A stretch of DNA of 21,516 nt from a virus (taxonomy: Duplodnaviria > Heunggongvirae > Uroviricota > Caudoviricetes), in IMG/VR virus record IMGVR_UViG_2718218434_000002, positions 1 to 21,516 of that record. The stretch is one strand, 5' to 3'. Each line of letters opens with the position of its first letter. The stretch's first letter is position 1. The position numbers and the translations under genes were made by a program. Positions 1 through 20,285 of this stretch are shown in pieces. Below the pieces are notes generated by a model. The model had not been told where the DNA came from. It searched no databases and was given only the letters and a program-made list of their open reading frames with translations.

Positions 1-258
1 ATGCAAACCGTTATTTTTGGTCGTTCGGGTTGCCTTTACTGTGTGCGTGCAAAAGATCTGGCTGAGAAATTGAGCAATGAACGCGATGATTTTCAGTATC
101 AGTATGTAGATATTCGTGCGGAAGGGATCACTAAAGAAGATCTACAACAAAAGGCAGGTAAACCCGTAGAAACCGTGCCGCAGATTTTTGTCGATCAGCA
201 ACATATCGGCGGCTATACCGATTTTGCTGCATGGGTGAAAGAAAATCTGGACGCCTGA
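1..258 (+). CDS. grxA: Glutaredoxin 1 (85 aa); active-site motif reads C-L-Y-C instead of canonical C-P-Y-C
   Basis: Translation MQTVIFGRSGCLYCVRAKDLAEKL...AAWVKENLDA matches E. coli Grx1 from memory over its full length except at codon 12 (ctt, Leu) and a conservative I/V change. Size and neighbourhood (ybjM, ybjL) fit. Confidence 0.9.
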   Translation: MQTVIFGRSGCLYCVRAKDLAEKLSNERDDFQYQYVDIRAEGITKEDLQQKAGKPVETVPQIFVDQQHIGGYTDFAAWVKENLDA

Positions 259-267: not shown

Positions 268-300
268 AAGCCCTCGCGTTGAGGGCTTTACTGATTTTTT
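268..300 (+). terminator. Putative rho-independent terminator after grxA
   Basis: Inverted repeat aagccctc / gagggctt with a 5-nt loop, followed a few nt later by a run of six T. It lies between the convergent grxA and ybjM genes. Confidence 0.45.
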
Positions 301-2732: not shown

Positions 2733-2779
2733 CCCATCAACCCCGCCATTTCGGTTCAAGGTTGATGGGTTTTTTGTTG
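2733..2779 (+). terminator. Hairpin plus T-tract, candidate ybjL terminator near the host/prophage boundary
   Basis: 10-bp perfect stem cccatcaacc (2733-2742) / ggttgatggg (2760-2769) followed directly by ttttttgttg. Confidence 0.5.
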
Positions 2780-2855
2780 CCTGAAATTTATGCCGTTTAA
2801 AATCATGACGTTAGAAGCACTGTTTTTTAACGATGGCGACAAAATGGCGGCAGCG

Positions 2856-3074
2856 TCAAAGAGAGAGCGCCACCTGTCCTGATTTCATTGGATGCGGCTG
2901 AACCGGATTTGACTCTTTTGGCGTTGCAATCGAACGAACAAAAGTTTCATGGGTTACAAAAGTATGGCTGCAGTTAATATTCTGGCACTGGTTGTAACGC
3001 TCTTTGGTCAATGAAGATACCTGAAAACTGCTGCGAGTATGGGCGGCACTTCCACACAGTGGGCAAATCATCAT
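2856..3074 (-). CDS. ogr: Late-gene transcriptional activator Ogr (zinc finger), 72 aa
   Basis: Translation MMICPLCGSAAHTRSSF...KERYNQCQNINCSHTF has the Ogr/Delta Cys-x2-Cys-x22-Cys-x4-Cys finger and resembles P2 Ogr. Start chosen at the internal ATG (3074) preceded by GGGGAGAA, giving the 72-aa length. The ORF track extends 11 codons further upstream. Confidence 0.85.
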   Translation of the reverse strand: MMICPLCGSAAHTRSSFQVSSLTKERYNQCQNINCSHTFVTHETFVRSIATPKESNPVQPHPMKSGQVALSL

Positions 3075-3164
3075 TTTTCGAGTTCTCCCCATTTTTGCTA
3101 AATTCACAATAATGATACCGCATTATTCCATTTTGCAAACTTAAAAGTTCTCCATTGCGAAGAA

Positions 3165-4265
3165 TCATTCCATTTCGAAATCATCAATCCTCACTTCAAG
3201 CTCCAGACTGGTCGTAAAACCGTTATCCGAGCTGACGGTATGTGTCAGAGTCGTAATGGTCCATTCCGCATCATCTATCGGCTGTTTAAAACCACTGACC
3301 TTCACAGGCATTTCCGTGTAGAGATCTGCCCGCCCTTCCGCCAGTTGTAGCGAGAATGACGCAACGCCGCGTTGCAGGCGTTCCCACTGCATTTTCGCTG
3401 CCCGTTCGGCGTTGCTCCGGTTGGCATAAGTGCGATTAAGTACCAGCACGTTTTCATCCGTACCCACCAGGTAATCGCCCTGCTTCGCTTCCGGCTCTTT
3501 CTTCTGCTTCTTAGTTCTGCGCTTACGCTTCACCGTGGTGCTTTCTTTCTTCGCAGGTTCGCGGGTATGCAACCAGCTGGCAATTACGCCCGTGTAAGCT
3601 CCGCGATCTGCCAGGGTAAATCGGTGACTGTCGCCGTCCTTGCGTGTGATAGTGATCACTGGCAGTGGTTTACCAGTGGCGCTTTTGCCCTGTCCCTGCC
3701 GAATGAATAACAGATTGCCATTTTTCACCGACGCAATAGCACCGTACTGGCGCGCCAGCCGCATCAGAAAACTGCCGTCACTCTCATTAGTCTGGTCTAT
3801 ATGTTCCACGGGCTTATCCGACAGGTCTTTACCCAGTGCCATCTTCAGCTTGTGACGCGCGGCTATTTCCTTCACCACTTCCCCAACTGTGGTCTTGTGC
3901 CACGATTTTTCACGGCGGGTATTCAGCGTTTCCCGAAAATCAGCACTTCGCGCCCGGATAGTCAGGCGGTCCGGTGCACCAGTGTGTTCAATTTCATCCA
4001 CCGTGAATGCCCCTTTCGGGAAAAGCGGCTGCCCCTTCCACCCCAGCGCCAGCATAATGACCGCACCACGGCGCGGCAGCACGATTTTTCCGTCGGCGTC
4101 GTCCAGCTCCAGATCAAGCTGGTCTGCTTCAAAGCCCCGATTGTCCGTCAGCGTAAGCCCCATCAGGCGGTTTTCCAGCACAGTGGTGATATCCTTGCCT
4201 TCAATGCTGATGCTGAATGCCGGAGTTTTGTTGCCTTTGTTAAGCAGTTCAGAGCTGAAATTCAC
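3165..4265 (-). CDS. D: Phage tail protein D (P2 gpD family), 366 aa
   Basis: Position directly upstream of ogr and downstream of U, size, and recalled similarity to P2 gpD. GTG start overlapping the U stop (GTGA). Confidence 0.85.
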   Translation of the reverse strand: MNFSSELLNKGNKTPAFSISIEGKDITTVLENRLMGLTLTDNRGFEADQLDLELDDADGKIVLPRRGAVIMLALGWKGQPLFPKGAFTVDEIEHTGAPDRLTIRARSADFRETLNTRREKSWHKTTVGEVVKEIAARHKLKMALGKDLSDKPVEHIDQTNESDGSFLMRLARQYGAIASVKNGNLLFIRQGQGKSATGKPLPVITITRKDGDSHRFTLADRGAYTGVIASWLHTREPAKKESTTVKRKRRTKKQKKEPEAKQGDYLVGTDENVLVLNRTYANRSNAERAAKMQWERLQRGVASFSLQLAEGRADLYTEMPVKVSGFKQPIDDAEWTITTLTHTVSSDNGFTTSLELEVRIDDFEME

Positions 4266-4747
4266 GACAGCAGCCCTCCCACCGTTTTACTGATATCGCT
4301 TAATGCAGATGTTGCCGTGTCCTGCAGATTATTCAGCTGCGCACTGAGATCACCGAACATATCGGACAGGGATTCATCCACTCGTTTGAGCGACAGGGTG
4401 AACTCAATCCGGCGCGGCATACCGTCGCGGAAAAACTCCGTTTTAGTCTGATTCAGTCCCTCAATCACATACATGCCGTAAATCGTGCCGCTGCCTTCAA
4501 TCAGGGGCCATGCTTTTCCCTGTTCTGCCATCTGCTCCAGTGCCAGCAACGACAGCCTGCCGCCTGTAATCTCCGGCATAAGAACGCCAGAAAGCGTCAG
4601 CATGTCGTTATCCGGTCCCAGAAACTGCGTTGACGGTCGTCGGTTAACCCGGCTGTTAGCCGCATGTCGCCAGCTGCGCTGATACTGCAGTTCCTGATAC
4701 GGCACGGTGCGCAGCATAAACACGTACAATCCCAGCACCATCATCAT
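4262..4747 (-). CDS. U: Phage tail protein U (P2 gpU family), 161 aa
   Basis: 161-aa ORF between T and D with 4-bp overlaps on both sides. Order T-U-D-ogr is diagnostic of P2-like tails. Confidence 0.85.
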   Translation of the reverse strand: MMMVLGLYVFMLRTVPYQELQYQRSWRHAANSRVNRRPSTQFLGPDNDMLTLSGVLMPEITGGRLSLLALEQMAEQGKAWPLIEGSGTIYGMYVIEGLNQTKTEFFRDGMPRRIEFTLSLKRVDESLSDMFGDLSAQLNNLQDTATSALSDISKTVGGLLS

Positions 4748-6558
4748 GCGTCGTATCCCCCCTGATCGCTGTAGTTACTCCTGGCTTTTGCCTTCAGCCT
4801 GCGTTCACGTTCATCAAGCTGGCGGGCCACCTCCCGCGCAATATCCTGCGCACTTTGTCCTGACTGCGTCTGGATGATGATCTGCGTCGGTGCCTCAATC
4901 CTGTAAACGGGCGGCACAGTGGCTGCGCGACTCACAATTGCTTCTCCACCTTTCGCGGGAAGTGCCAAAGGGTGCAACGGTGGAAGCTCTGCTGGCGCGG
5001 CAGCAACGCCCATCATTCCGGCAACAACGGCAGCCAGTGCAGCTGTATTTCTCCGGCTGGTCACATTTGCCGGGCCGTTGACAATTTCAGGCCCGTTTTC
5101 ACCGACGATGCCAAACTGCCCGCGCGGAATATAGCCGCCGCTGTCATACATCCCCGCAAAGCCATATCCCCATGACGGCAAACCACCCGATGGCATCATC
5201 ACTTTACCGTCTGCATTCACCGTCGCAGGTTGCTGACGCGTCACGCTTTCCGGTAGTTTTGCCTTTGCGGCCTCTTTACTGACAATGCCGAGTTTTTCCA
5301 GCAACCAGGAAACGCCGGATTTCAGGGAGTCCAGCGGATGCATGACCATATTCAGCCCTTCCGCCAGTGCCTCCCCGAATCGTCGCCCCATTGCCGCTGC
5401 GCTCTGCAGTTCGGCAGAGGTCGACTTAACAGGCGTCAGCAGATCAGTAAACCAGCCCCACAGCGCCTGCACTTTGTCGCCAATCCACTGAAACACAGGC
5501 TTAAGTGGTTCGAATGCAGCACTGATGGGACCTGCCGCCGCTTTGAATCCTTCCACCACTCCACCGAGAAATGCGGTGATGGGTTGCCAGTATTTCCAGA
5601 CAACCAGCGCCACGCCTGCCAGTGCAGTAACCACAAGACCTATCGGACTGAGCAGAGCACCTAACAGACCAGATATGGCATACAGGGCAACGCGCAGCAT
5701 CGCCAGTGGACCAGATGCCAGTACTCGCAGCACCGTACCTGCGGCGGTCAGTCCACCGCGCAGTACCGCCAGAGGATTCATAAACATCACAGCAACAGCA
5801 CGTAAACCGGATAATCCAGACCGCAATAGTGCAACCGGCGCACCTGCTACAGTTTTCAGGACATTCCCCGTCAGTGATGCCGTGCGACGCAAAGACGACA
5901 ACGGCGCAGTAAGTAAACCCGCTGCGTTGCCCGATGAAGCAAGCCCGCGTCGCAGCAGTGCCAGTGGTGCGCCAGCCAGCCAGGACAACGCGCTGCTGGT
6001 TCGTGTTACTGCTGCCGTAACGGAAGGTAACGTTTTGATACCCAGCACAGAGAATCCCAGACGGATCACTGCCAGCGGCCCCAGCACTGCAGCCAGCGCC
6101 ACCGCTAAGGTGCCGAGGCCTACGGTAACCGCAGCCACAATAGCGGCTACTTTCATCAGTGTGCCTGTCAGTTCCGGGTTAGCTTCCACCCAGCGGCGCA
6201 ACGCCCCCGTGATGCTTTTCACCGTGTACAGAATATTCATCAGCGGCTGGCGCAGCGTTTCGCCCAGGCTGCTGAAGGTGTTCTGCGCTCCGGTTTTGAC
6301 CAGCAACCACTGAGCAGAAAGTGAGTCTTTGTTGATGTCGGATTCTTTCTGCATGGAACCGAGCGCATCATTGCCCGCTGTCAGTTTTAGCTGGCGCTGT
6401 AGTTCCGGCAGGTTGTTTGCCAGTTTCGCCGCGTCATCGCCAAACTCTTTACCAAACAACATGGTCATGGCAGACAGACGCTTGTCCTGCGGCAGTGCGT
6501 TCACCTTGAGAAGCTGGAAGAAATCTTCCATTCCTCCATGTTCAACTACCAGCGCCAC
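4744..6558 (-). pseudogene. T: Tail tape-measure protein T, N-terminally truncated fragment (about 604 codons retained)
   Basis: Long Ala/Gly/Leu-rich repetitive protein typical of tape-measure proteins, directly upstream of U. The reading frame has no real start and runs head-on into the 5' end of the terminase fragment. P2 gpT is about 815 aa from memory. Confidence 0.8.
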
Positions 6559-7875
6559 TGGTGGGAAGCCGGAAAAACCAACCGCATCCGCAACCTGCTG
6601 AAGTCACGCCAGATCGGCGCGACCTTTTACTTTGCCCGTGAAGCCCTGATTGACGCCCTGCTTACCGGACGTAACCAGATTTTCCTTTCCGCCAGTAAGG
6701 CACAGGCGCACGTCTTTAAGCAGTACATCATCGACTTCGCCAAAGAAGTGGATGTGGAACTGAAAGGCGATCCGATGGTGCTTCCTAACGGGGCCACGCT
6801 TTACTTCCTCGGCACCAATGCCCGCACGGCCCAGAGTTATCACGGCAACCTGTATCTGGATGAATATTTCTGGATACCGAAATTTCAGGAGCTACGCAAA
6901 GTGGCTTCCGGTATGGCTATTCACAAGAAATGGCGGCAGACCTATTTTTCCACACCATCCAGCCTGACCCACAGTGCTTATCCGTTCTGGTCCGGTGCGC
7001 TGTTCAACCGTGGACGCAACAAAGCCGACAAGGTGGACATTGATCTGTCCCACAGTAATCTGGCCCCCGGCCTGCTGTGCGCTGACGGGCAATACCGCCA
7101 GATAGTCACCGTGGAAGATGCGGTGCGCGGTGGCTGTAACCTGTTCGACCTTGACCAGTTGCGCATGGAATACAGCCCGGACGAATACCAGAACCTGCTG
7201 ATGTGCGAGTTTGTGGACGATCTCGCGTCCGTGTTCCCGCTCAGCGAACTACAGGCGTGCATGGTGGACAGCTGGGAAGTCTGGACCGACTTTCATGCAC
7301 TGGCGCTGCGCCCGTTTGGCTGGCGCGAAGTGTGGATCGGTTATGACCCGGCAAAAGGTACGCAGAACGGCGACAGCGCCGGATGCGTGGTGGTGGCACC
7401 GCCAGCCGTGCCGGGCGGTAAGTTCCGCATTCTTGAGCGTCACCAGTGGCGCGGGATGGACTTCCGCGCCCAGGCTGACGCCATCAAAAAACTGACTGAA
7501 CAGTACAACGTGACATACATCGGTATCGACTCAACCGGCGTCGGTCACGGGGTTTACGAGAACGTGAAAGCGTTTTTTCCTGCCGTCCGGGAGTTTGTCT
7601 ACAACCCCAACGTTAAAAATGCCCTGGTACTCAAGGCCTACGACATTATCAGTCACCGCCGTCTGGAGTTTGACGCCGGACACACCGACATAGCGCAGTC
7701 ATTTATGGCAATCCGTCGCGCCACCACCGCCAGCGGCAACCGCCCGACCTATGAAGCCAGCCGCAGCGAAGAAGCCAGCCATGCCGATCTGGCGTGGGCA
7801 ACAATGCACGCACTGTTTAACGAACCGCTGCAGGGCGAGTCCGCCAATACCAGCAATATTGTGGAGATTTTTTGA
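6538..7875 (+). pseudogene. P: Terminase large (ATPase) subunit P, N-terminally truncated fragment (about 445 codons retained)
   Basis: Contains the P-loop-like LLKSRQIGATFYF segment and overlaps the Q start (TGATG), as in the P2 P-Q operon. No promoter or upstream sequence; the frame collides with the T fragment on the opposite strand. P2 gpP is about 590 aa from memory. Confidence 0.8.
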
Positions 7876-8903
7876 TGGGAAAGAGTAAGAAGAACCGCGC
7901 TGTGTCGACGAACCAGATTCAGCACAAAAGCCAGACTTCAGCCGAAGCATTCAGCTTTGGCGATCCCGTTCCTGTTCTGGACCGCCGCGAACTGCTGGAC
8001 TATGTAGAATGCGTACAGACAGATCGCTGGTATGAGCCGCCAGTGAGTTTTGACGGACTGGCGCGAACCTTCCGCGCTGCCGTGCATCACAGTTCACCAA
8101 TTGCGGTGAAATGCAACATTCTGACCAGTACCTACATCCCTCACCCGCTTCTCAGCCAGCAGGCTTTTTCACGTTTTGTGCAGGACTATCTGGTATTTGG
8201 TAACGCTTACCTGGAGAAACGCACGAACCGGTTCGGTGAAGTTATCGCCCTTGAGCCTGCTCTGGCAAAATACACCCGACGTGGGTTAGACCTGGATACC
8301 TACTGGTTTGTGCAATACGATATGACAACCCAGCCGTATCAGTTCACGAAAGGCAGCATTTTTCATCTGATGGAACCGGACATCAACCAGGAGATCTACG
8401 GCCTGCCCGGCTATCTTTCTGCCATTCCATCCGCCCTGCTCAACGAGTCCGCCACGCTGTTCCGCCGTAAGTATTACATCAACGGCAGCCATGCAGGCTT
8501 CATCATGTACATGACCGACGCCGCGCAGAATCAGGAGGATGTGAACAACCTCCGCAACGCGATGAAAAGTGCCAAAGGTCCAGGCAACTTCCGCAACCTG
8601 TTTATGTACTCGCCTAACGGCAAAAAAGACGGGCTTCAGATCATCCCATTGTCAGAAGTCGCGGCGAAGGATGAATTTCTTAACATCAAGAACGTAAGTC
8701 GGGATGACATGATGGCGGCGCATCGTGTGCCGCCGCAGATGATGGGGATAATGCCAAACAATGTTGGGGGGTTTGGGGATGTGGAGAAGGCTAGTAAGGT
8801 TTTTGTGATAAATGAATTAATTCCTTTGCAAAAACGATTTATGGAAATAAACGCATGGCTCGGGGAGAAACTTATAGAATTTTCTCCATATGAGCTTAAC
8901 TAA
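7875..8903 (+). CDS. Q: Portal protein Q (P2 gpQ family), about 342 aa
   Basis: Directly downstream of P with a 1-nt stop/start overlap. Size matches P2 gpQ (344 aa from memory). The ORF track starts one codon earlier at TTG. Confidence 0.85.
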   Translation: MGKSKKNRAVSTNQIQHKSQTSAEAFSFGDPVPVLDRRELLDYVECVQTDRWYEPPVSFDGLARTFRAAVHHSSPIAVKCNILTSTYIPHPLLSQQAFSRFVQDYLVFGNAYLEKRTNRFGEVIALEPALAKYTRRGLDLDTYWFVQYDMTTQPYQFTKGSIFHLMEPDINQEIYGLPGYLSAIPSALLNESATLFRRKYYINGSHAGFIMYMTDAAQNQEDVNNLRNAMKSAKGPGNFRNLFMYSPNGKKDGLQIIPLSEVAAKDEFLNIKNVSRDDMMAAHRVPPQMMGIMPNNVGGFGDVEKASKVFVINELIPLQKRFMEINAWLGEKLIEFSPYELN

Positions 8904-8911
8904 AATATTAG

Positions 8912-8941
8912 TTGCCAGTACCGTATTGTTGCTACTGGCAA
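8912..8941. terminator. Hairpin between convergent Q and the 778-aa cargo gene (possible bidirectional terminator)
   Basis: Inverted repeat ttgccagta (8912-8920) / tactggcaa (8933-8941) in the 49-bp gap between two convergent stop codons. No strong T-tract. Confidence 0.35.
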
Positions 8942-8952
8942 TTGCAATAAAA

Positions 8953-11289
8953 TTACAAATATGTATTGCTATGTAGAGATGTGTTTATTCCATCTTCTAT
9001 CTCAATTTTTGACGAAGCATACTCATCATTCGCACTATCATCAATATCAAACTCATCTTGTAGATGAAGTGACTCATTTAACGGTTTATAAAACTCACCC
9101 ATCATCATTTTGTAATGGGCAGTATGCTCACTACACTCAAATATCTTCTGAAAAACAATTAAATATTTTTGCACAGACTCCGTATCTAAATTCATATAAA
9201 GATCATCACCTGCAAAATGAGAACCATCATTAATCCATGACACTAAAGATTTAAATATGATTTTTTCATCACCATAAAAATGACACTCAAGCTTCCTAAT
9301 ATCCATCCCTCCTAATATCTTAAAGTAATTCTCCAAAATCCTTCGCATTGTATTTTGTATAGTATTATTATTAATATCTGTTCTTCTCAATTCGCACCAG
9401 AGCAAATCATAAGACGTTTTTATTGGGTTTGATTCGCACTTTTCAAGATATGAGACCTTCCCTTTTTTCCTTACAATCCAAAAAGTCTCCTCTTTCATTG
9501 CTTGATTACCGGATCTTTTAGTATTAAAAGTCAACTCTTTATGAAAATAAATATTATGCGTAAGGAATATAATTTGCTTAATATTTCCTTCATCCTTACG
9601 AACATCCTCCATTAAATCTTTAATCAACGAACTTACAATAAACAGAATATCACTATCTAAACTTGAAATTGGATCATCAAATACTACAACACGATCATCT
9701 AAAACACCTGATGCATTATCACTCCCTCTAACAAGACTATAAAAATACAAAAAAGTGATAAATGTCTTTTCTCCCTCGCTAAGAGTTGTACGAGCATTAT
9801 CTCCACTATCTCTCACTATCATATAATGCTTTTTATCTTCGGAGGGTTTTAAGTAAAAATTTTTGAAGCCATAAGAATCCAGAATCTTGTTAATTTTTGT
9901 AATAGTTGGAAGAGTACTGGTTTTATTAGACTCAATTGCCTCAATAGCCGAAGCATTTAACATTAACTTCTTTTTGTCTTCCTCTAACCCAGATTTAAGT
10001 CCTTGTAACCTCCTACTAAATTTATCAGATTCGCTACGGTAAGAAGTTATTTCAGACTTTAACTCCACCTTTACGATATATGCCCATATCTGATTAGAAA
10101 GATTACTAACCTCTACCTTTCTATTACTGTGTATTTTGTTATTATTATCTATCAATAGATTTGAATCATTCAAAAAAGAAATAAAATCATCAACAACTTC
10201 ACTTAAGTCACTAAAATGAACTGATTCACTTAAAAAATTGCGTTTGTTTTTTGCCAATTCAAAATTCTTGTTTAATTCAGATAATACTATCTTAGCCTTA
10301 TCCTCAAATACTTCATAATTTATGAATGGAGATTTAATCGCCCTTATATCATCTATCGCCTGCAAGATATTATTAAGTTGATGTTCATATTGTAAAACCA
10401 ATGCATCGATTTCTCTTTTTTTTAACTCGTATGTTTTATCAAAATATGATGATAGATTATCAAATATATTATCATTTACATCCTGTTGGCAGAATGGGCA
10501 CTTGGGATTAGATTTACTGAAATATGTTAAACCTTCCTTAACCCAATCACTGTTATTGAGCATTGTAATTAAGTCTGAAACACTAACGTCTTTTTTCCCT
10601 AGAATACGCTCACTCCAAATCTCCCTACTCAAAATATCATCTATCCCATTGAAGGATGGAATTGTAATTGATACATGTGATGTCAATTCAGTAGAAAAAA
10701 CAATTTTTGCTTTCTCAATTAGCTCTGCTATTGAGCAAACTTCTGATGTGTTATTTTCATACTCAGCCAACACTCTAGCTTTAAATTTTTCACTACTATT
10801 CCTTAATCCCTCAAAAGCCTTTGAGAACACATTATCATGTTTTATTTTTTGCTTCCAACATGAATCTTTAAAAGATTTTTCATGGTCTTCGATTTGTTTA
10901 ACAACGCCTAATATATTATCACCACCATCTATTAGCTTTTCCTTTGCTATAATAGATTCTATTAGCTTATTTTTTTCTTCTTCAAGAGATATTAGTTTCT
11001 CTTCATCCTCCTTAAGATCGCTACCAAGGGTAAATACACCTTTAATTTTATCTTGACTAAAATTTCTTTCAACAAAATCTTTATTATATACGTAGCTTAT
11101 TAAAGATATATTATTTTTCCATTTAATCGGACATGTTGGATATTGTTCAGGGTCATTAATAATTTTACTTATAGTTGTTTTACCTGCACCATTAGCTCCA
11201 TATAAATAGTTAAATTTAGAAAGCCCATGTAAAAGCTGAGTAGGGCCATTATATGAGCCTACTTTGTCAATAACTACCTCTTCAATCAT
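8953..11289 (-). CDS. Stand-alone ABC-type ATPase with coiled-coil CxxC hook and C-terminal nuclease-like domain (AAA_13 / RloC-PrrC-like candidate), 778 aa
   Basis: Motifs read from the translation: Walker A GANGAGKTT (aa 31-39, nt 11173-11199), CPFC near the middle of a long charged heptad-like insert (nt about 10486-10500), ABC signature LSEGEK, Walker B VVVFDDP, H-loop LTHN, then a roughly 200-aa tail containing RRILE and a later GSH. The gene is visibly AT-rich compared with flanking phage genes. Confidence 0.6.
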   Translation of the reverse strand: MIEEVVIDKVGSYNGPTQLLHGLSKFNYLYGANGAGKTTISKIINDPEQYPTCPIKWKNNISLISYVYNKDFVERNFSQDKIKGVFTLGSDLKEDEEKLISLEEEKNKLIESIIAKEKLIDGGDNILGVVKQIEDHEKSFKDSCWKQKIKHDNVFSKAFEGLRNSSEKFKARVLAEYENNTSEVCSIAELIEKAKIVFSTELTSHVSITIPSFNGIDDILSREIWSERILGKKDVSVSDLITMLNNSDWVKEGLTYFSKSNPKCPFCQQDVNDNIFDNLSSYFDKTYELKKREIDALVLQYEHQLNNILQAIDDIRAIKSPFINYEVFEDKAKIVLSELNKNFELAKNKRNFLSESVHFSDLSEVVDDFISFLNDSNLLIDNNNKIHSNRKVEVSNLSNQIWAYIVKVELKSEITSYRSESDKFSRRLQGLKSGLEEDKKKLMLNASAIEAIESNKTSTLPTITKINKILDSYGFKNFYLKPSEDKKHYMIVRDSGDNARTTLSEGEKTFITFLYFYSLVRGSDNASGVLDDRVVVFDDPISSLDSDILFIVSSLIKDLMEDVRKDEGNIKQIIFLTHNIYFHKELTFNTKRSGNQAMKEETFWIVRKKGKVSYLEKCESNPIKTSYDLLWCELRRTDINNNTIQNTMRRILENYFKILGGMDIRKLECHFYGDEKIIFKSLVSWINDGSHFAGDDLYMNLDTESVQKYLIVFQKIFECSEHTAHYKMMMGEFYKPLNESLHLQDEFDIDDSANDEYASSKIEIEDGINTSLHSNTYL

Positions 11290-11422
11290 CCTCTAATCCT
11301 CAAAAAACAGATTAATCCTATCAAATCAATGATAATAGAAGACATTACTTACCTAATTACAAGGTGATCATTTATACAGCTGTGAATAAATCAGGCTAAT
11401 CATCTATTTGTCATAACGCGCG

Positions 11423-11441
11423 CTCGTATCCCCGCCACGCC
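11423..11441 (-). other. cos-like cohesive-end sequence (P2/186 type)
   Basis: The minus strand reads GGCGTGGCGGGGATACGAG. The first 13 nt match the 186 cohesive end (GGCGTGGCGGGGAAAGCAT) as recalled. Orientation and position (Q side to the left, A side to the right) fit the P2 left end. Confidence 0.45.
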
Positions 11442-11712
11442 TGCCCGCTTTATATAGTGGTTTTCATGCACCTGCATGACATAAGCAAAAGCCCGCCATA
11501 CCTAGCAGGCCCCAACTAGAGCGATCCTTAAACGATCATGCGGATTCATGCAGTATAGACATGCAGTAGTTACGCCAAACCGTGTAGCGAGGCCACCTGC
11601 TAAAAATGTTCACGGAGTAACATTTGATCTCCACTGCAAAAAATGAAACTTTCGCTTTCACCAAATATAACAAGAGGTAATCTTTGGTGTTTTACACAGC
11701 AAACGGTGAGCC

Positions 11713-12294
11713 ATGAAAGTCAACATAAAACAGATTGTTGGAAATTGGGAATTAGGTCTTGCGATGGATAAACACAGCATCCGCAGCATTCCCATTGGTT
11801 ACGATGAGTGGGGACATATGCGGTTTGAGACGGAGCGTACTGAGGTAGGCGAATCTCTTTTCCAGCTTAAATACCGTGACGATTGGTCACAAGTTAAGCC
11901 TTTAGCCCAATGCCTAGCAGAGCATGCCTTTCCTCATTTCAGCAATGTCGGGTTTATCGTTCCAATGGCTGCATCTAATCAGCGTGCACGCCAGCCAGTG
12001 ACCGAAATAGCTCAGGAACTAGCCAAACTAGTTGGCAAACCATGCTTCGATGACCTCTTGTTGAAAGCCCCCGGCGGGGCATCGCTAAAGAACCTGAATA
12101 CAAAAGAAGAGAAAATCACGGCGCTGGGTAATTCGTTCTCTGTTAATGACAGTATTGAGAATAATGGCAACTGGAATGTCCTTATCATTGACGACCTCTA
12201 CCATACAGGCGCATCTATGGAGGCTGCTTGTGCTGTGCTAAACGATTATACTAAGGTTAGAAGCATTTATGTTGCAGCTTTGACTTGGAGATAG
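11713..12294 (+). CDS. Type I phosphoribosyltransferase-domain protein (PRTase), 193 aa
   Basis: PRPP-binding signature VLIIDDLYHTGASM (nt about 12178-12219) near the C-terminus. ATG preceded by GGTGAG. Its stop lies 2 nt before the next gene's ATG. Confidence 0.8.
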   Translation: MKVNIKQIVGNWELGLAMDKHSIRSIPIGYDEWGHMRFETERTEVGESLFQLKYRDDWSQVKPLAQCLAEHAFPHFSNVGFIVPMAASNQRARQPVTEIAQELAKLVGKPCFDDLLLKAPGGASLKNLNTKEEKITALGNSFSVNDSIENNGNWNVLIIDDLYHTGASMEAACAVLNDYTKVRSIYVAALTWR

Positions 12295-12296
12295 TG

Positions 12297-12854
12297 ATGA
12301 CTACGGTATTTGTTGCTGGTTCAATAACCATCAAAAACCTTGACACACTCATCGTGGATCGTCTGAAAAAAATTGTTAACTCGCGTTTTCGTATTGTAGT
12401 TGGTGATGCCAATGGTGTTGATTCATCTGTTCAACGCGTATTGCTAGAACTTGGATGTGAAAAAGCCACAGTATTCAGTAGCTCAGAAAAACCGCGCAAT
12501 AATCTTGGCTCATGGCCTGTACATGTAGTAAGTACTAGCCATGCAGCCGGCACTCGCGCGTTTTTCACTGCGAAAGATCTCAAAATGGCAGAAGAAGCCG
12601 ATTATGGATTAATGGTTTGGGATACGAAGAGCACGGGTACTCTGAGTAACGTGATTGAGCTTCTTAAACGTAAAAAATACTCTGTCGTTTTTGTTAATAA
12701 ATACAAAAAGTTCTTTATTATCAAATCTCCAGAGCACCTTGACGCTTTGATTAACTGCATGTCACCAGCCTCTTTGGAAAAAGCTGATGAAAAGATCAGA
12801 TTGCGCGAAAAAATCAACCAACTAAAAAACGAGCAAATCCAGATGTTTATGTGA
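12297..12854 (+). CDS. DprA/Smf-like (SLOG superfamily) Rossmann-fold protein, about 185 aa
   Basis: RIVVGDANGVDSSVQR resembles the DprA VSGLARGIDxxAH motif, and a later KSTGTLSNVIELLKRKK resembles the DprA SGS(L) region. ATG at 12297 with GGAG 7 nt upstream, so it is co-transcribed with the PRTase. The ORF track starts 4 codons earlier at TTG. Confidence 0.65.
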   Translation: MTTVFVAGSITIKNLDTLIVDRLKKIVNSRFRIVVGDANGVDSSVQRVLLELGCEKATVFSSSEKPRNNLGSWPVHVVSTSHAAGTRAFFTAKDLKMAEEADYGLMVWDTKSTGTLSNVIELLKRKKYSVVFVNKYKKFFIIKSPEHLDALINCMSPASLEKADEKIRLREKINQLKNEQIQMFM

Positions 12855-12943
12855 AATTCTTTGATGATAACACTAACGCCTCGCCCTGCTCGTTGTTCAA
12901 CCTTGCTGGCTTCAGAATCAAGTACTGATGCCAGCAACGTTTC

Positions 12944-13177
12944 TTAATGCAGCCAGCTGTCGTCTTCCCACACCTTCTGCATAATTTTCATCACTTGTTT
13001 TCTTTCTTCGTCCAGTTGCAGTCCGGTCAGTTCCACACCGTTAGAGCTACCTTTTCGGATACGAATTACCGTTTTGGGATACAGGGGGCGCAGATTGCGG
13101 TAAAGCTCGGATTCAAGGGCGTCCAGGGTAGACTGGCTAATCTTCTGCTCTTTATCGATCATTATTTCAATGCGCAT
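12944..13177 (-). CDS. DinI-family protein (77 aa), equivalent to the C-terminal part of 186 Tum
   Basis: MRIEIMIDKEQKISQSTLDALESEL...KVWEDDSWLH aligns by eye with E. coli DinI (MRIEVTIAK...). Internal ATG at 13177 with GAGGTGA upstream chosen as the start. The ORF track's longer frame overlaps the upstream gene. Confidence 0.8.
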   Translation of the reverse strand: MRIEIMIDKEQKISQSTLDALESELYRNLRPLYPKTVIRIRKGSSNGVELTGLQLDEERKQVMKIMQKVWEDDSWLH

Positions 13178-13187
13178 AAAAGTCACC

Positions 13188-13376
13188 TCAACTGATGACA
13201 TCCATTGAGCGGTTGTATTCGTGAGTTCTGATTTTTGCCATGAGTTCATCAGTCAATTCAGAAACCCACTGCAGGGCCAGCCCCTTCTCTTCATCACTAC
13301 ACTCACTAGCCGCTACAAGCTTAAGAAAAAAATCAATGCGCTGGAGCTTCAAAGACTCCAAAAAATAGTCCTGCAT
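13188..13376 (-). CDS. Small acidic protein (62 aa), candidate Tum-like antirepressor N-terminal module
   Basis: ATG with a strong AGGAGG RBS, immediately downstream of a LexA box and 10 nt upstream of the dinI-like gene. Function inferred from the arrangement only. Confidence 0.5.
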   Translation of the reverse strand: MQDYFLESLKLQRIDFFLKLVAASECSDEEKGLALQWVSELTDELMAKIRTHEYNRSMDVIS

Positions 13377-13418
13377 CTTTCCTCCTATGACACCAAAGCA
13401 ATACTGTATACATAACCA

Positions 13419-13434
13419 CTGTTTATATTTACAG
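13419..13434. promoter_or_regulatory. LexA (SOS) box CTGTTTATATTTACAG
   Basis: Perfect CTGT-N8-ACAG palindrome with an AT-rich spacer, about 45 bp upstream of the 62-aa ORF start on the minus strand. An overlapping partial site tactgtatac lies just to the left. Confidence 0.7.
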
Positions 13435-13528
13435 TATATAATAATCTTACTGATGTAAAACGTTTTTTTACGCTCATCAGCCTGATATGCCTGGTATTAT
13501 TAAGAGCACGAATTGTTAACCCGCGTAA

Positions 13529-15901
13529 TTAATACAGGTTTCGCCACTTATCATCTTCCTGCAAACGCTGGTTCCGATAGAAGATACGCAGGCCTGCTCC
13601 TGACGGAATACTGCCTCCGCGAAGCAGTAAATCGACCTCTTTCTCGCTGCCATCAAATCCCCTGGACTTCAGTTCATACACGAGCTGCAGTCGCTGATGG
13701 TCTGTAATTCGCTGTTTGTAGTCTTTACGCCGTTTCGGTTTCACCAGGCGTAACCTTGCTGCCAGTTCCCGGCGCTCTTTTTTGCTCATACTGTGCAGGT
13801 AATCGTGCAACTCCTTGTCATCCATGCGGGTGATATCCGTTCTGGTATCTCCATCAGCTGATTTGTCTTTCCCTTGTTGGTACAAATTTTCAGCAAGGGG
13901 ACAGTTATTGCCACGAGTCCAAGGGGCGCAAGCGCCCTGGCCGGCTGCCGCCTCCTGAACATCAACGGCCTTACGAACCATTTTCCACTTCACGGCATGA
14001 GTGCAGATCTTGCCCTCTGCAATAGGTGACCAGATGCCATAAATACGAATGCCGTGATCGCCATAGGCGGTCGGCTCTTCGTTGATTTCATAAGCGGTTC
14101 TGATGAGGTGATATTTGCGGGGAACCAGTACGCCGCCCTGCTTCATGATGTAGGTGGCAAAACAACCAGCATCAGCAGCAGCCAGGATGGCATCAAGGCG
14201 CGGGTTATCCAGTACCGGCGCACCTGCTTTTTTGTCCCCCTGTTGCCTTGCCGCCTGACCAGCCAGCAATCGCAGTTCACGGTAAGCCTGACGCCCCGGA
14301 ATGCCAAAGAAGCGGAATTGCTGAACACGATGCAGAGACGCCCAGGCATTAACGTATTCAGCATTATCACGCAGGGATTTCCCCGTTTCCTTGCTGATCT
14401 CGCCAGCCAGACCACGCCCGTCAATGTTCTTACTGATGTATTTCGCGATGTAGCTTGTTGGCGTACCTTTGCGCGGGTTAATCAACTCAGACTTAAAGCG
14501 CGGCCCAGTGTTATTGCCCAGTTCCTCGCGGTCTTCACGGATGGCAAACTTACGCAGTAATGCAGTGATGGCGCGGCGGTCTTTTTTGCGCATAAAACAC
14601 AACAGGTGCCAGTGAACTGTACCGTCATGATGCGGCTCAGCCACCCGCACGCCATACCACCGCAATCCGGCTTTGTGCATCGCCTTACGAAATGCAGCAA
14701 ACATGCCGACCAGATAATCACTGCTTTGTCTTACCGTCGCATTTGTCCAAGTTGGGTTGGGCCTGCCATTATTTAGCGTGGAATGGAAACGTGACGGACA
14801 GGTGATGGTGTAGAAAACGGCGCAGTCACCGCGCATTTCCGCGATAAGCTCCAGGCCTTTAACACAGGCCATCATCTCATTGCGGCGATGCGCAGGGTTG
14901 CTGCTGCTGGCGTTTACCACGTCTTCCATATCCAGCGTGTCGCCGTCTTCGTTCACCAGTTCATGAGAACGAAAAAACTCCAGCGACTTACGGCGCTGCT
15001 CACGTTTATGCATCACGGCTTCATAGCTGACATAGGGAGATGCTTTTTTGCTGACCAGGCAGACAGCACGCAACTGCTCTTCCCGCCATTCGCAACGCAT
15101 CTTCCATAATTTCCGGTACCACCAGTCAGCGCACAACATACGCGCCAGCGAACCCGGAATGAGTTCATAGGGCACGGGTTTACGGCGGTTTCTTTTCCGG
15201 CGGAGTTGCTCAAACGCAGGCGGGATGACATCCAGACGCAGGGTTTCCGCTGCCACCTTTTCCCATGTCTTGCGGATTTCTTCTGGCTTAACGTCATCGG
15301 TGACATACAAATCGCCACAAGCTGCATCAAGGCACATGCTCATATGCGCAGCTACCAGGGTGGACAGGCGTTTCACCTGATCCTGACTCATTTCAGGCAG
15401 GATCAGCAGGCCGTCCAGCCCTTCATGGCTTGCCATAAAGCGAAAAGAAGTGGATAGCTGACAGTCGCGTACATGCTCCAGCCGTTCCAGACATGGCTTA
15501 ATCGTCTCACGCAAATAGCGGGAATAAGCCTTTGGCCTGCCCAGGCTGCTGAAGTATTCAATACGTTGCATCAGCGGCTTGCTGATATGGGAAGGCTGGG
15601 CATTGACGTCCGCCAGAATGACCATATCTGGATTAAAACGCTGCTGCTCATGCGCCAGCTTTGCCCGACTAATGAGCTTATCCTGCTCCATTTCGCGCTG
15701 GACAGGATCACGGGATTCATTAAAGAAATAACGCTCCCAGACCTGATCACTCAGTGCCTCGCGGCGCAGCTGTTCCTGCTCGTTATCGGCAGCGTACAGA
15801 GCGATCAGGTTTGAAAGCGCAGAAACTGAAGATTGCTCTTCTGTCTCTACGTAAGGATTGATTGCTTTTTTCTCAGCATTCCAGGAATAGCTGTAGTTCA
15901 T
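13529..15901 (-). CDS. A: Replication initiation protein A (rolling-circle HUH endonuclease, P2 gpA family), about 790 aa
   Basis: HUH motif in [15 protein letters not shown] and the downstream [12 protein letters not shown] segment match P2 gpA from memory. Start set at the ATG that overlaps the stop of the upstream gene (TAATG). The ORF track extends 17 codons further. Confidence 0.9.
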
Positions 15902-16731
15902 TACGCAATCTCCAGTTCGAGCTGTGAAGGCTGCAAACCATTCGACAGCCAATCAGAAACTGAAGGTGGGCGAACAGCTTCAATTGCACCTTTTAAAATT
16001 GCGCAACGGTTTTTCAGAATGACAGCTTTCAGCTCCTTTTCCGTCAGATTGCGCGAATACTCAGCCTCCTGAATAGCCCGCGTCAGCTCAGGATATTTGC
16101 TATTAAATTTGGGGACATTGCAGGCAAGATTTGTACTGTCGGCAGTCGCCAGTGGGTAATTTCCCAACACACGACCGTCAAGCATGCGCAAACCATGAAC
16201 AGCTGTTTTGAAATTGTGTCGGCAATAAATTGCTTCAAAAGCGTCCTGCATACGACGATGCCAGTGCGCAGTTCTGATAGCCGCATATTCACCAGACGAT
16301 CCAAAGCAGACACGAGGCCATTCACGACATAGCTCGATAAGCCGATCGATTGACTCGTGCAGATGCCAGACGGGAGTTGCCTTCCCGTAGAACATTTTCG
16401 GAACTTCGTTTATCAGGGCATCATTGTCACGTTCACCTCCGTCCACAACATCAGGAATGACAAAAAAAGCGACCTTAGGATGGTGGTAATAGTTCAGGAG
16501 CCATTTATAAAAATCACTCCAGTTAATTTTTAGCCCACGCACCCATGCAGAAAATGCGCCGTTATCAATGCCGACGACCTGAGCGTGCTGAATGGACGCC
16601 GCAATCTGATCTGGTCGTACATAGGAGACGAAAGCGCCAGCTCCGCTCACCGCAATACGATGAACGTCGCCAGCACTTCCCCAGACAGGCGTCCCATGGA
16701 AATGATGAATTCCGTGGTGCATTTCTTTCAC
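15901..16731 (-). CDS. Hypothetical protein (276 aa) coupled to the Dam methylase; possible TIM-barrel TGT/DpdA-like DNA-modification enzyme
   Basis: Translationally coupled to dam upstream (GTGA overlap) and to A downstream. Motif order GIDNGAFS ... FFVIPDVV ... CFGSSGEY ... ATADSTN loosely parallels the tRNA-guanine transglycosylase motifs TDSGGFQ ... IFDEC ... LMGVG ... MFDCV. The fold assignment is tentative. Confidence 0.7.
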
Positions 16732-17582
16732 ACTTGCACCCCGAAAATAACAGTAGAGTCACGTCCCCTACTAAAATCGGCACTAAACCAATTAGCAGAT
16801 TTAGTGGCAATCATCTCTGTTGCAAATTTTCCCTCCCCCGCTGCAACGCCGATGCTGCGTTTCGCCCTGATGTAGTGGTGAGTGAAATTACGATAAAGGG
16901 ACCGGGTCAAAGACGTGTTACTGTTAGAAACAATGACCGGATGTCCTTCTGATGACCGATGTTCAAGAATGGATGCCAGGTGATACTGATCATCTTCAGT
17001 GAAACCATCAGTGTGATAGCCGGAAAACGTACCGTCATAAGGCGGATCGCAATACACCACATCCCCCACCTTCAACATCGCCAGCGTTTCATCAAAGCTG
17101 GCGCAGATAAACGTTGCCCGCTGGGCTTTCTCTGCAAATGCGCGAATTTCTTTTTCAGGGAAATACGGATTTTTATAATTACCGTAGGGAATGTTGAAAT
17201 GCCCGCTCTTGTTATAGCGACATAAACCACGGTAACCGTGACGATTGAGATACAGGAAATATACCGCTTTCATGAAATCAGTAATTTCAGTGGAGTAATT
17301 AAACTCCTGCCTTATGTTGTAATAAGCCACCTCCCTGTTTGCTTCCTCAAATAAAGCTCTGGCACGAGATATAAACGCCTCACAATCAGCAGCAACCTTT
17401 TTATAGAGGTTGATTAAATCAGGATTAATATCCGCAACAAGATAGCTGGGATAATCCGTCTCCATCATCACTGCACAGGAACCCGCGAAAGGTTCAACCA
17501 GTCGCGGGCCAGCAGGAAGATACTTTTTCAGTTCGGACATTATGGCGGTTTTATTTCCTGCCCATTTCAGGATGGTGCTCAT
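16728..17582 (-). CDS. dam: DNA adenine methyltransferase (Dam family, probably GATC-specific), 284 aa
   Basis: Motifs KWAGNK, EPFAGS (AdoMet binding) and CDPPY (catalytic). ATG at 17582 overlaps the stop of the upstream TraR-like gene (ATGA). The ORF track extends 20 codons upstream. Confidence 0.9.
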
Positions 17583-17806
17583 ACAGCACCTCCGTTGTAA
17601 TGTTTGCCTTTCAGCTCTGCGATTTCCTGACAGGTAATGCAAAGCTGCACACCCGGAATGGCACGGCGGCGTGCTGGCGGAATTGGCGCTTCACACTCAA
17701 CGCAAAGCACGCGGGACACGCCCGGCGTTTTGGCACGGGCAGCACGGATATGGCGTTGGCGTTCTTCTTCAACGCGCTGCTGTACGAGATCCATTGCATC
17801 AGCCAT
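17579..17806 (-). CDS. TraR/DksA-family C4 zinc-finger protein, 75 aa
   Basis: CVEC-x17-CITC finger. Small basic protein in the early operon, as with the P2 orf82 class from memory. Confidence 0.8.
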   Translation of the reverse strand: MADAMDLVQQRVEEERQRHIRAARAKTPGVSRVLCVECEAPIPPARRRAIPGVQLCITCQEIAELKGKHYNGGAV

Positions 17807-18039
17807 CAGTGGATCTCCTGCGCTTCGTTCTGGATTGCTTCAGCAGTCACACGCAGCAGTTCTGCCGCTTCGACGTGGTTTAGCTGGCGGGAGGTGATAT
17901 GACACGCCAGGCTATCGAGGCGAGCAGCCATTGCTTCAGCCCTTGCCCGGCGTTCTTCCAGACGAGCCTCTGTCAGTAAAAGATTAAGACCTGCATCATC
18001 CGGTCCGGTTTTGGTCGTGAGGGTTTCAATATTACGCAT
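17806..18039 (-). CDS. Hypothetical early protein (77 aa)
   Basis: ATG at 18039 with an AGGAGA RBS. Stop overlaps the TraR-like start (ATGA). No recognisable motif. Confidence 0.55.
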   Translation of the reverse strand: MRNIETLTTKTGPDDAGLNLLLTEARLEERRARAEAMAARLDSLACHITSRQLNHVEAAELLRVTAEAIQNEAQEIH

Positions 18040-18106
18040 AAGCAATTCTCCTGAATTTAGATAAAGGGATGCCCGGCGGGTTTACGCCATTAATTTCATT
18101 AGTTGG

Positions 18107-18448
18107 TTAATTCGGCATGGTTAGCCGTCTGGGAAATAAGCTCACCACTGCACGAAAATGATTCATTGCTTTAATCAACTCCCGCTTTTCGTCAGTGGTC
18201 AGCTCATTAATGCTGATGCTATGACGTTCAGCTGGAATTTTTGCCATAAAGAATATGGCAGCCAGTGCCCGTTTATTTTGTTCATTATTGATATCCCGAG
18301 GATCACGCATATCTTTAATAAACCGCTCAAGCTCTGACTCAATATTCAAACCAAAAACTTTCGCCCTTAACTCCGCAATATGATTAAGTCCATTCAGGCG
18401 TTCACCGGGTCTTAATGGAACAGTCGCCGCAGCGCCTTCAATAGCCAT
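18107..18448 (-). CDS. Hypothetical early protein (113 aa)
   Basis: ATG at 18448 preceded by GGGGGAA. In operon position between cII and the replication genes. Confidence 0.55.
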   Translation of the reverse strand: MAIEGAAATVPLRPGERLNGLNHIAELRAKVFGLNIESELERFIKDMRDPRDINNEQNKRALAAIFFMAKIPAERHSISINELTTDEKRELIKAMNHFRAVVSLFPRRLTMPN

Positions 18449-18612
18449 TTGTTCCCCCGTTTTTTCGTAGATAGTTCTGCCAGCAATTCATCTTGTGAAC
18501 GGCACGGATGCCAGCGTTTACCATCCTCACCCATGATCCAGCCGTGACCGTAGTGCATTGCCGGACTTTGTTTTACCAGCAGCGATGCAAATGATGGTTC
18601 TTTCGTCAGCAT
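18412..18612 (-). CDS. Hypothetical small early protein (66 aa)
   Basis: ATG at 18612 with a GAGGTG RBS, 7 nt after the cII stop. The ORF track's longer GTG-initiated frame would overlap cII. Confidence 0.45.
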   Translation of the reverse strand: MLTKEPSFASLLVKQSPAMHYGHGWIMGEDGKRWHPCRSQDELLAELSTKKRGNKWLLKALRRLFH

Positions 18613-18619
18613 AAGCACC

Positions 18620-19129
18620 TCACAGCAAACCGAATGAAGCACCGAGGCCAGTCACGGTATCAACTGCACTCGCCATCGCAGGATTAGCCTGTAAACGGGC
18701 CTGCAATGAAACAGCAGCCAGCGCCATCAGTCGTGTAACAGAGTTAATGCTGCTGATCGCATCACGACGGCCTGCACTGGTTTTTACATCGCCAGAAACC
18801 GCACCTGCCGCGACACGCCCTATCTCTGCAGTTGCACTCATGACGTAATGCGGCAGTTTCTCTTTTGCCACCTCATTAATCGGTACACATGGCAGGCAGT
18901 GAATCTGTGCCAGAAAGCCATCTACCAGCGTTGAATCTTCAGTCAGATCGGTAAGCAACCAGATTTCTGGTGCGGTTAATAAATGAGGTTGAGCTGGGTT
19001 CAGCTTGTTCCGCAGAATCTGCACATTCATGCCTGCACGTTCTGCCAGTTGCACTAGGTTGTGGCGCAATGCGAATGCACGACAGGCTTCATCAAAATGT
19101 GGATGTTTGGAAACTTGGTAATCAAACAT
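18620..19129 (-). CDS. cII: CII-type lysogeny-establishment activator (186 CII family), 169 aa
   Basis: [24 protein letters not shown]...GLGASFGLL closely resembles phage 186 CII as recalled, with the same 169-aa length when started at the ATG at 19129. Confidence 0.8.
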
Positions 19130-19161
19130 GGTCAATGCCTCTGATGTATTTCAGAATCGAA

Positions 19162-19383
19162 CTAATTAAGGTTTAGATTGCATTCTGAAAGCGCATCAAC
19201 GGTCATGGCTGCTATGTTGATCATCACTTTTTCACGTTTTTTATCTTTGCGCAGACGGTGACGGATAAGGCGTCCGTCAGCCAACATGTCATTGATGGTA
19301 TCGATGGACAGCCCTGTCAGCTCGCTATAGCGTTCAATAGTCACATGAGGCGTGGTAAGAGTGATTGAAATGTTAGGTCTCAT
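19162..19383 (-). CDS. apl: Apl/Cox-like excisionase and transcriptional regulator, 73 aa
   Basis: Small HTH protein ([23 protein letters not shown]) that is first in the lytic operon, divergent from cI, as for 186 apl or P2 cox. Confidence 0.65.
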
Positions 19384-19508
19384 GATGCAACATTCCTCGT
19401 TTAATGATGATTAATCAGGACGAATACGGATCGTTTGTATTTTGTGAACACCATAAACATACGATCGCACAGTGAAATCGTCAAGATAAAAGTTCACTTG
19501 GAGTGACC
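19384..19508. promoter_or_regulatory. Immunity switch region between apl and cI (promoters and operators)
   Basis: 125-bp AT-rich intergenic region between divergently oriented apl and cI. Individual operators were not resolved. Confidence 0.5.
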
Positions 19509-20078
19509 ATGAATTTGGAGAAAGGCGGACGAGGCGCTATAGAGCGCATGGTAGAAGCTTATGGATTCAAAACTCGACAGGCGTTGTGCGATCATTTAGG
19601 AATCTCTAAAAGTACACTCGCCACACGCTACATGCGTGACTCATTCCCAGCAGAATGGGTAATCCAGTGCGCCCTTGAAACGGGCACCTCGCTTAATTGG
19701 CTCACAACCGGACATGGTTCAAAGCAAACTTCAGGTAATACAAATACTATGGAAGTTGCTAAATATGTATTATCTGATGGTGCCTTGCGTGAAGACGGTT
19801 TTTATATTTTTGATAAGGGATTTCTACCCTCTACGTTTAAAAAACCTTTTGTCATCACAGATAACAATTCTGAATTTATTTGTGATAAAGAATTTGATGA
19901 TATACGTGACGGTAAATGGGTAATAAGTATTGATGGCGAAATAACAATCCGCGACATTACTCGTTTACCCGGTGGAAGAATCTTCGTTGAAGGTGGAAAC
20001 AGAGCCTTCGAGTGCAAGATAGAAGATGTTGAAATAATTGGGAAAATTATAAGTTTAACAATTAAGTACGTTAGGTAA
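19509..20078 (+). CDS. cI: CI immunity repressor (186 CI-like), about 189 aa
   Basis: N-terminal HTH (QALCDHLGISKSTLATRYMRD). Size and position upstream of int match the 186 cI-int lysogenic operon. ATG at 19509 with GGAG 6 nt upstream. Confidence 0.8.
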   Translation: MNLEKGGRGAIERMVEAYGFKTRQALCDHLGISKSTLATRYMRDSFPAEWVIQCALETGTSLNWLTTGHGSKQTSGNTNTMEVAKYVLSDGALREDGFYIFDKGFLPSTFKKPFVITDNNSEFICDKEFDDIRDGKWVISIDGEITIRDITRLPGGRIFVEGGNRAFECKIEDVEIIGKIISLTIKYVR

Positions 20079-20093
20079 TACCGGGAGGAAACT

Positions 20094-20285
20094 ATGCTTG
20101 GTAAGGTATTTTTTGTGGTTTTATCATGCTCTTTGTTATTAAACCCACTAACTACCTATGCTAAAAATTATCCTTGTTCTGGGAAAAAGGGAGGTGTCTC
20201 TCACTGTACCTCCGATGGAAAGTTCGTTTGCAATGATGGAACTATTAGTAAATCAAAAAAAATCTGTACTAAAAACTCGCGATAA
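20094..20285 (+). CDS. Small secreted Cys-rich basic peptide (63-aa precursor with predicted signal peptide)
   Basis: Strong RBS GGGAGGA 5 nt upstream. N-terminus [23 protein letters not shown] looks like an SPase I signal peptide. The predicted mature part (about 40 aa) has 4 Cys and many Lys. AT-rich insert between cI and int. Confidence 0.55.

Follow-up and report, generated by a model that had tools for sequence, protein, structure and literature searches.

A natural CLYC active-site allele of glutaredoxin 1 in a lineage of enterotoxigenic Escherichia coli

The stretch of DNA analysed in this study (21,516 nucleotides, hereafter called the window) begins with a grxA gene whose product, glutaredoxin 1 (Grx1), carries leucine at residue 12, between the two catalytic cysteines, and its active site reads CLYC. 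We judge it probable that this substitution (P12L) is a genuine, inherited variant that yields a folded but hypomorphic or kinetically altered Grx1, and that it is close to neutral and has spread by descent within a clade associated with enterotoxigenic E. coli (ETEC). The several parts of this account differ in strength, and each is graded below where its evidence is described.

Grx1 is the textbook example of a dithiol glutaredoxin, and the proline of its CPYC site is regarded as near-invariant. A natural CLYC allele stably maintained in a lineage of pathogens represents a ready-made experiment on what this residue contributes, with its roles in setting redox potential, in glutathione turnover and in the exclusion of Fe-S clusters all being accessible to such study. 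The allele also bears on the dispensability of Grx1 in wild E. coli, and typing this one SNP could be a simple way to recognise the ETEC lineage related to ST1201. Regardless, the allele already has a RefSeq accession in the databases, with the plain annotation glutaredoxin 1, and it reveals no new system or mechanism. Its significance is modest unless a gained function is proved.

The grxA gene and its altered active site

The 85-amino-acid product of the first open reading frame in the window (Table 1) starts MQTVIFGRSGCLYCVRAK... and corresponds exactly, including the CLYC motif, to the database protein WP_001400157.1 (UPI0002C90359). Aligned end-to-end with E. coli Grx1 of known structure (PDB 1EGO/1EGR), 84 of its 85 residues are the same, and P12L is the sole difference. 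The protein passes both family models, with 161 bits for the NCBIfam GrxA equivalog NF008401 (cut-off 84) and 147.1 bits for TIGR02183 (cut-off 106.5). The corresponding scores of wild-type Grx1 are 164.3 and 148.3 bits, and thus the substitution costs just 3.3 and 1.2 bits, respectively.

Both catalytic cysteines (C11 and C14) are in place, with the CxxC motif located at the N-terminus of helix 1. The elements of the glutathione site, namely the TVP loop, the GG motif (...HIGGYTDF...) and Tyr13, are also present, all as in 1EGO. On the basis of established structural knowledge of Grx1, we take TVP to be the cis-Pro loop of this site. Leu12 is the reason that the canonical C-P-[YF]-C motif does not match. 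Homology, genomic context and HMM score all identify the protein as a glutaredoxin 1, one that departs from the family consensus at this proline only.

The preliminary description, which was made from the letters of the window alone, had read codon 12 as ctt within a CLYC motif, attributed it to a single C-to-T transition and took the remainder of the protein to be essentially that of Grx1. These readings hold in full: position 35 is T, it is the only base among the first 1,149 of the window at which K-12 MG1655 has another letter (C35T), and the protein match to 1EGO is as given above. Positions 36-1149 are accordingly without differences from K-12, and the hairpin at 268-288 downstream of grxA is intact. 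In genome 510016, which carries the same allele, the intergenic region between ybjC and grxA (159 bp, including the promoter) is the same as in K-12. The genes ybjM and ybjL lie downstream of grxA in the window, and the order ybjC-grxA-ybjM-ybjL is found in the carriers of the allele as well as in K-12. No dcm (CCWGG) hotspot context is present at position 35 in the surrounding sequence ...TGCCCTTAC....

Table 1. Features of the window that are discussed in the text.
Feature	Position	Strand	Evidence or remark
grxA coding sequence (glutaredoxin 1, 85 aa + stop), P12L allele	1..258	+	ORF; GrxA HMMs; identity to PDB 1EGO
Active-site CxxC, C11-L12-Y13-C14 (canonical CPYC)	31..42	+	tgc ctt tac tgt; 1EGO alignment
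Single-nucleotide variant T (CCT Pro -> CTT Leu)	35	+	K-12 comparison; 41-mer test
T58-V59-P60, cis-Pro loop of glutathione site, unaltered	172..180	+	translation ...ETVPQIF..., same in 1EGO
Terminator-like hairpin and T-rich tail between convergent grxA and ybjM, same as K-12	268..298	+	consensus scan
P2-like prophage	2779..21516		inserted just after ybjL
Tape-measure remnant	4744..6558	-	abuts large terminase remnant
Large terminase, N-truncated	6538..7875	+	445 aa
Cargo slot	8953..12854		between portal and gpA
AAA_13 ATPase, 778 aa	8953..11289	-	PDC-S06 match
Small ORF, first	11713..12294	+	weakly ShosT/PsyrT-like
Small ORF, second	12285..12854	+	
Integrase	20386 onward		runs past window end

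Occurrence, carrier lineage and origins of the allele

Because chance-match statistics are inapplicable to a single-base variant, the relevant figure for P12L is its frequency. This was determined by searching complete E. coli genomes with a 41-mer centred on position 35, wherein every 28-base seed necessarily spans that base. T35 was found in three of 5,426 genomes (0.06%), which are 510016, Z22-6 and Z22-7, and position 35 is C in K-12 and in at least 5,416 other complete genomes. One complete RefSeq genome (510016) matches the window at 100% over 300 bp and has an annotated grxA in that segment, with thousands of others being one mismatch away.

The exact CLYC protein is also encoded on 213 contigs (NCBI, ENA and Logan), and 437 index blocks of public assemblies contain it. 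We retrieved ten NCBI assemblies deposited by unrelated groups, and in each of them the protein is encoded at its usual place, within the order ybjC-grxA-ybjM-ybjL. The first 2,700 bp of the window are the same as in about nine of the carriers that were fetched, whereas carrier L006 is one base off and carrier L004 is 16 bases off. Two of the carriers, 510016 and 503046 (CP025886, locus L010), are PacBio-finished ST1201 genomes, and this marks CLYC as an allele of a lineage. There is almost no doubt that P12L (C35T) is a genuine, vertically inherited missense allele and not an artefact.

The preliminary description had left the choice between an unusual natural variant, a sequencing error and a loss of function. 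Given that CLYC is shared by so many independent assemblies, produced by unrelated submitters on different platforms, among them the two PacBio-finished ST1201 ETEC chromosomes, error is refuted for the allele as such. A sequencing or assembly error confined to the genome that supplied the window is highly improbable because, although errors can produce single-base transitions such as this one, the error would need to recreate by coincidence an allele that is known from 213 contigs, and within a 2,700-bp segment that matches independently assembled carriers, PacBio-finished chromosomes included.

The interpretation as an unusual natural variant is supported both by the frequency given above and by the conservation of the proline in the GrxA family (see below). 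The same description had proposed comparing grxA alleles across Escherichia, and had named frequent occurrence of CLYC within its lineage as grounds for refutation. The allele is rare in the species, but CLYC is indeed common within the lineage that carries it, and thus the variant is less singular than was first implied.

Published records (PMC6446980 and its supplement) describe 510016 and 503046 as phylogroup A ETEC isolates (O25:H42, ST1201; STh, CS6, CS4, CS21) collected in India in 2009-2012, and assign them to a lineage of ETEC that has no designation. Across 12.75 kb, the carriers exhibit at least four upstream haplotypes, comprising {L003, L011}, {L005, L007-L010, L012}, the mosaic L006 and the very divergent L004. 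Two downstream flank haplotypes occur among the carriers, and these are paired with the upstream ones in all combinations. Approximately 1.7 kb around grxA (-563 to +1150) is the same in all carrier haplotypes. The closest CPYC genomes to the main carrier group are 9-10 mismatches away over 12.75 kb.

At the site between ybjL and rcdA, some carriers have no prophage, and others have P2-like prophages that are 1.3-3% apart. For example, rcdA comes straight after ybjL in 510016, whereas the window has a P2-like prophage at that place. Derivation of the window from 510016, which the 300-bp match had suggested, was rejected for this reason. Given the mixed flank haplotypes and the differing prophages, the main carrier group is a diversified, recombining clade rather than one outbreak clone. 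P12L is a resident allele of this phylogroup A ETEC lineage, which includes O25:H42, ST1201 strains and relatives that have recombined flanks and different prophages.

Two strains do not belong to this background. Z22-6 (locus L013, NZ_CP159728.1, with grxA at 10487-10744) and Z22-7 are hospital isolates from Qingdao, and both have T35 together with C25, which encodes S9P, such that the active-site loop reads GRPGCLYC. S9P defines the second major grxA allele (at least 1000 contigs). The closest neighbours of Z22-6, strain 1943 and others, read S9P with CPYC and differ from it by a single mismatch in 12,750 bp, which is position 35. S9P and T35 are separated by only ten bases, which makes recombination an implausible source of the combination, and Z22-6 and Z22-7 thus represent a separate C-to-T event. 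On this evidence, P12L has arisen at least twice.

A single-clone origin of P12L was therefore rejected for Z22-6, on account of its S9P background and of CPYC neighbours one base away. We likewise rejected the idea that S9P and P12L in these two strains are a pair of fresh mutations in the active-site loop, since S9P is a major allele that occurs with CPYC in the neighbours. L004 is also one mismatch in 12,750 bp from many CPYC genomes, and it likely represents a third origin. Alternatively, L004 may have acquired the allele through a recombination patch of less than 1.7 kb rather than by new mutation, which is possible because the interval from -563 to +1150 is the same in all haplotypes.

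Two features of the surrounding DNA deserve separate description. In the 503046 locus, an IS1 element (1500-2735) truncates ybjO (142 aa versus 162 aa) approximately 8 kb upstream of grxA, and 510016 also matches this interval in two pieces. In the window, colinearity with K-12 ends near position 2779, where a P2-like prophage begins (Table 1). This prophage has an internal deletion that brings a tape-measure remnant against a large terminase of reduced length, which is 588 aa in the intact relatives L018 and L024. These relatives match window positions 6506-21290 at 99.95%. In the protein collection, the 445-aa terminase remnant is found on short, unrelated contigs only, and the tape-measure remnant, considered with two alternative starts, has no entry. 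Genes for capsid, lysis, tail and baseplate are missing, and the prophage is therefore defective.

The cargo slot of the prophage encodes an AAA_13 ATPase that matches PDC-S06, a candidate defence family of PADLOC, at E 8e-266, and that is more weakly similar to LmuB/PrrC. Two small ORFs share the slot, the first with its faint ShosT/PsyrT-like similarity at E 1e-8. In related prophages, the neighbouring slot is occupied by a KAP NTPase or by DarT+Macro (DarTG). The prophages at 12.8-20.3 kb of loci L007, L009, L011 and L012, compared with the window at 2.8-6.5 kb, are 1.3-3% divergent and occupy the same ybjL-rcdA site. Prophages that differ or are absent at one site indicate repeated lysogenisation within the clade that carries the allele.

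Conservation of the proline and the likely effect of its loss

Among GrxA-family cluster representatives with an intact motif, proline is present in 120 of 124 (97%), distributed as CPYC (96), CPFC (22), CPWC (1) and CPYS (1). The four exceptions are CAYC, CAFC, CSYC and the CLYC allele itself. Given that CSYC, CAYC and CAFC orthologues exist, C-P-[YF]-C is a consensus feature of GrxA and not an absolute requirement. The proline-free orthologues are P0077 (Mixta tenebrionis), P0035 and P0099. The M. tenebrionis protein is encoded on a 4.56-Mb genome contig, and its CSYC motif is that of the Fe-S-binding human GLRX2.

No native CLYC orthologue occurs among the 124 representatives besides the allele under study. 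A DNA scan of 185,579 species-representative genomes for G-C-L/F-Y-C-V-R/S-A-K likewise returned no CLYC GrxA, and its three matches were all out-of-frame or non-glutaredoxin chance matches. Thus, CLYC is fixed in no known GrxA orthologue. The retention of proline in 97% of representatives, together with the lack of a CLYC species representative, indicates long-term purifying selection on this residue, and for this reason P12L may be mildly deleterious rather than neutral.

Other natural substitutions give a measure of how P12L should be viewed. With 444 and 845 distinct sequences in the two grxA clusters of the protein collection (P0135 and P0138), the majority of single substitutions will already have been sampled. 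In addition to P12L (213 contigs) and the S9P + P12L combination (4), these include C14Y (13), P12T (8), P12H (5), C11Y (5) and P12S (4), and P12A, P12R and Y13H are absent from these clusters. At this depth of sampling, recurrence of P12L is expected and is, alone, no evidence of selection. Its high contig count reflects the expansion of one lineage. The natural C11Y and C14Y alleles suggest that at least some lineages in the wild can do without Grx1 function.

Experiments on other glutaredoxins are informative with regard to the role of this residue. The CPYC proline blocks Fe-S cluster ligation, and its replacement suffices for [2Fe-2S] binding in human GLRX1 and poplar GRXC4 (PMC8161271; PMC7138851). 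Where it is replaced (GLRX1 P23S, poplar GRXC4 and CrGRX2 P28G), activity falls and affinity for glutathionylated substrates rises, and kcat for ScGrx6, which has CSYS, is about 40-fold below that of ScGrx7, which has CPYS (PMC8161271; PMC7138851). Our literature search found no paper that pairs CLYC, CVYC or P12L with glutaredoxin or grxA.

The cysteines, Tyr13, the TVP loop and the GG motif are all kept and the promoter is as in K-12 (established for 510016), and for these reasons the P12L protein is most likely expressed and folded as a normal glutaredoxin. In the model we favour, Leu12 replaces a rigid proline without a backbone NH at the first turn of helix 1, and the outcome would be a Cys-aliphatic-Tyr-Cys site resembling that of T4 glutaredoxin. 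Such a site would probably still cycle between dithiol and disulfide, with glutathione-dependent turnover probably lowered and with redox potential and partner preference perhaps shifted somewhat.

The aliphatic residue of T4-type sites is compatible with glutaredoxin activity, and the Val/Ile precedent of the phage proteins is too distant for direct transfer to P12L. Together with the Pro-to-Ser/Gly precedents, the T4-type sites nevertheless argue for an activity that is altered or reduced and not abolished. We put the case for a hypomorph, as opposed to a null allele or a gain of function, at an even balance.

Grx1 is dispensable in E. coli, where thioredoxin 1, Grx2/3 and NrdH overlap with it. 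Coverage of Grx1 roles by these proteins would allow P12L to be tolerated, and the allele would persist because of this dispensability, with which the natural C11Y and C14Y alleles fit. A near-neutral P12L could then have become more frequent by hitch-hiking with a clone that was itself successful. Alternatively, selection may lie behind the two or three independent origins.

A null allele is an unlikely reading. It holds that P12L abolishes Grx1 because the protein misfolds, the thiolate has the wrong pKa or the interaction with glutathione or ribonucleotide reductase (RNR) is lost, which would leave an intact-looking pseudogene that is tolerated as thioredoxin and other glutaredoxins substitute. 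The strong conservation of proline and the lack of any species-level GrxA with CLYC are in keeping with such a loss, but both cysteines and every other residue of the protein are kept. Moreover, functional T4-type glutaredoxins and NrdH have an aliphatic residue at this place. Among other glutaredoxins, those without the proline have markedly lower activity, although the Pro-to-Ser/Gly mutants concerned retain partial activity (PMC8161271). Obvious nulls (C11Y and C14Y) survive in natural isolates, which signifies that Grx1 loss is tolerated. However, none of 13 carriers has acquired a frameshift or stop in grxA despite the diversification of flanks and prophages, which is a weak test over such short times.

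Less probable still is an altered or gained function under positive selection, which would explain both the recurrence of P12L and its clonal success. The new property might be a glutathione-bridged [2Fe-2S] cluster as in CSYC and CGYC glutaredoxins, reducibility by thioredoxin reductase as in T4 glutaredoxin and NrdH, or slower re-reduction of OxyR with a longer peroxide response. The first option is favoured by the Fe-S-blocking role of the proline and by the mutants of GLRX1 and GRXC4 (PMC8161271; PMC7138851), but those class I cluster binders that have been characterised carry a small residue (Ser or Gly) here, and leucine is bulky. The last option gains some plausibility from the membership of grxA in the OxyR regulon (PMC5574878).

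That P12L arose at least two or three times is also in line with selection, yet E. coli genomes have been sequenced in such numbers (hundreds of thousands) that any C-to-T transition is expected to recur. Similarly, P12L is far commoner than P12S, P12T and P12H, but its high count is explained by one expanded lineage, and it is present in a mere 0.06% of complete genomes. The specific proposal of a recurrently selected switch to a T4-like or Fe-S-competent redoxin we consider improbable. If it is true, the ETEC lineage related to ST1201 and the other independent carriers would gain from P12L a benefit in the gut connected with oxidative stress or iron. We retain as our preferred reading a folded, near-neutral Grx1 of altered kinetics.

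Comparison with known redoxins

The closest known system is E. coli Grx1 itself (PDB 1EGO/1EGR/1GRX/1QFN). The two share the cysteines, Tyr13, the TVP loop, the GG motif and the ybjC-grxA-ybjM-ybjL gene order, and they differ in the residue between the catalytic cysteines, which is proline in the reference protein and Leu12 in the window protein.

The T4-type glutaredoxin (NrdC; PDB 1AAZ) is alike in that an aliphatic residue follows the nucleophilic cysteine and is in turn followed by an aromatic one. Its motif is CVYC, and relatives in T4-like phages have CIYC, CVFC or CVHC. T4 glutaredoxin is reduced by both glutathione and thioredoxin reductase, and it serves as a hydrogen donor for RNR in the E. 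coli cytoplasm (Nikkola et al. 1993, as cited in PMC2757866). The T4 residue is Val or Ile, whereas leucine is not beta-branched, and the T4 site is native and co-adapted with its protein, whereas the CLYC site is a point mutation. In searches of the PDB, neither Grx1 nor T4 glutaredoxin retrieves the other at E<=1e-3, and the T4 query retrieves only Grx3, at 8e-4. The Grx1 of the window therefore resembles T4-type glutaredoxins in the type of active-site motif only, and not as a member of their family.

NrdH-redoxin (PDB 1H75; CVQC in E. coli) has a glutaredoxin-like fold and an aliphatic residue after its first cysteine. It is, however, from another family, lacks a glutathione site and depends on thioredoxin reductase, and the NrdH HMM gave no match for the window protein in a profile search. 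Finally, the class I glutaredoxins that bind Fe-S clusters, such as human GLRX2 (CSYC) and poplar GRXC1 (CGYC), share with the window protein a proline-free CxYC site. In these proteins, as in the GLRX1 P23S and GRXC4 Pro-to-Gly mutants, the position is occupied by a small serine or glycine, whereas the window protein has a bulky leucine.
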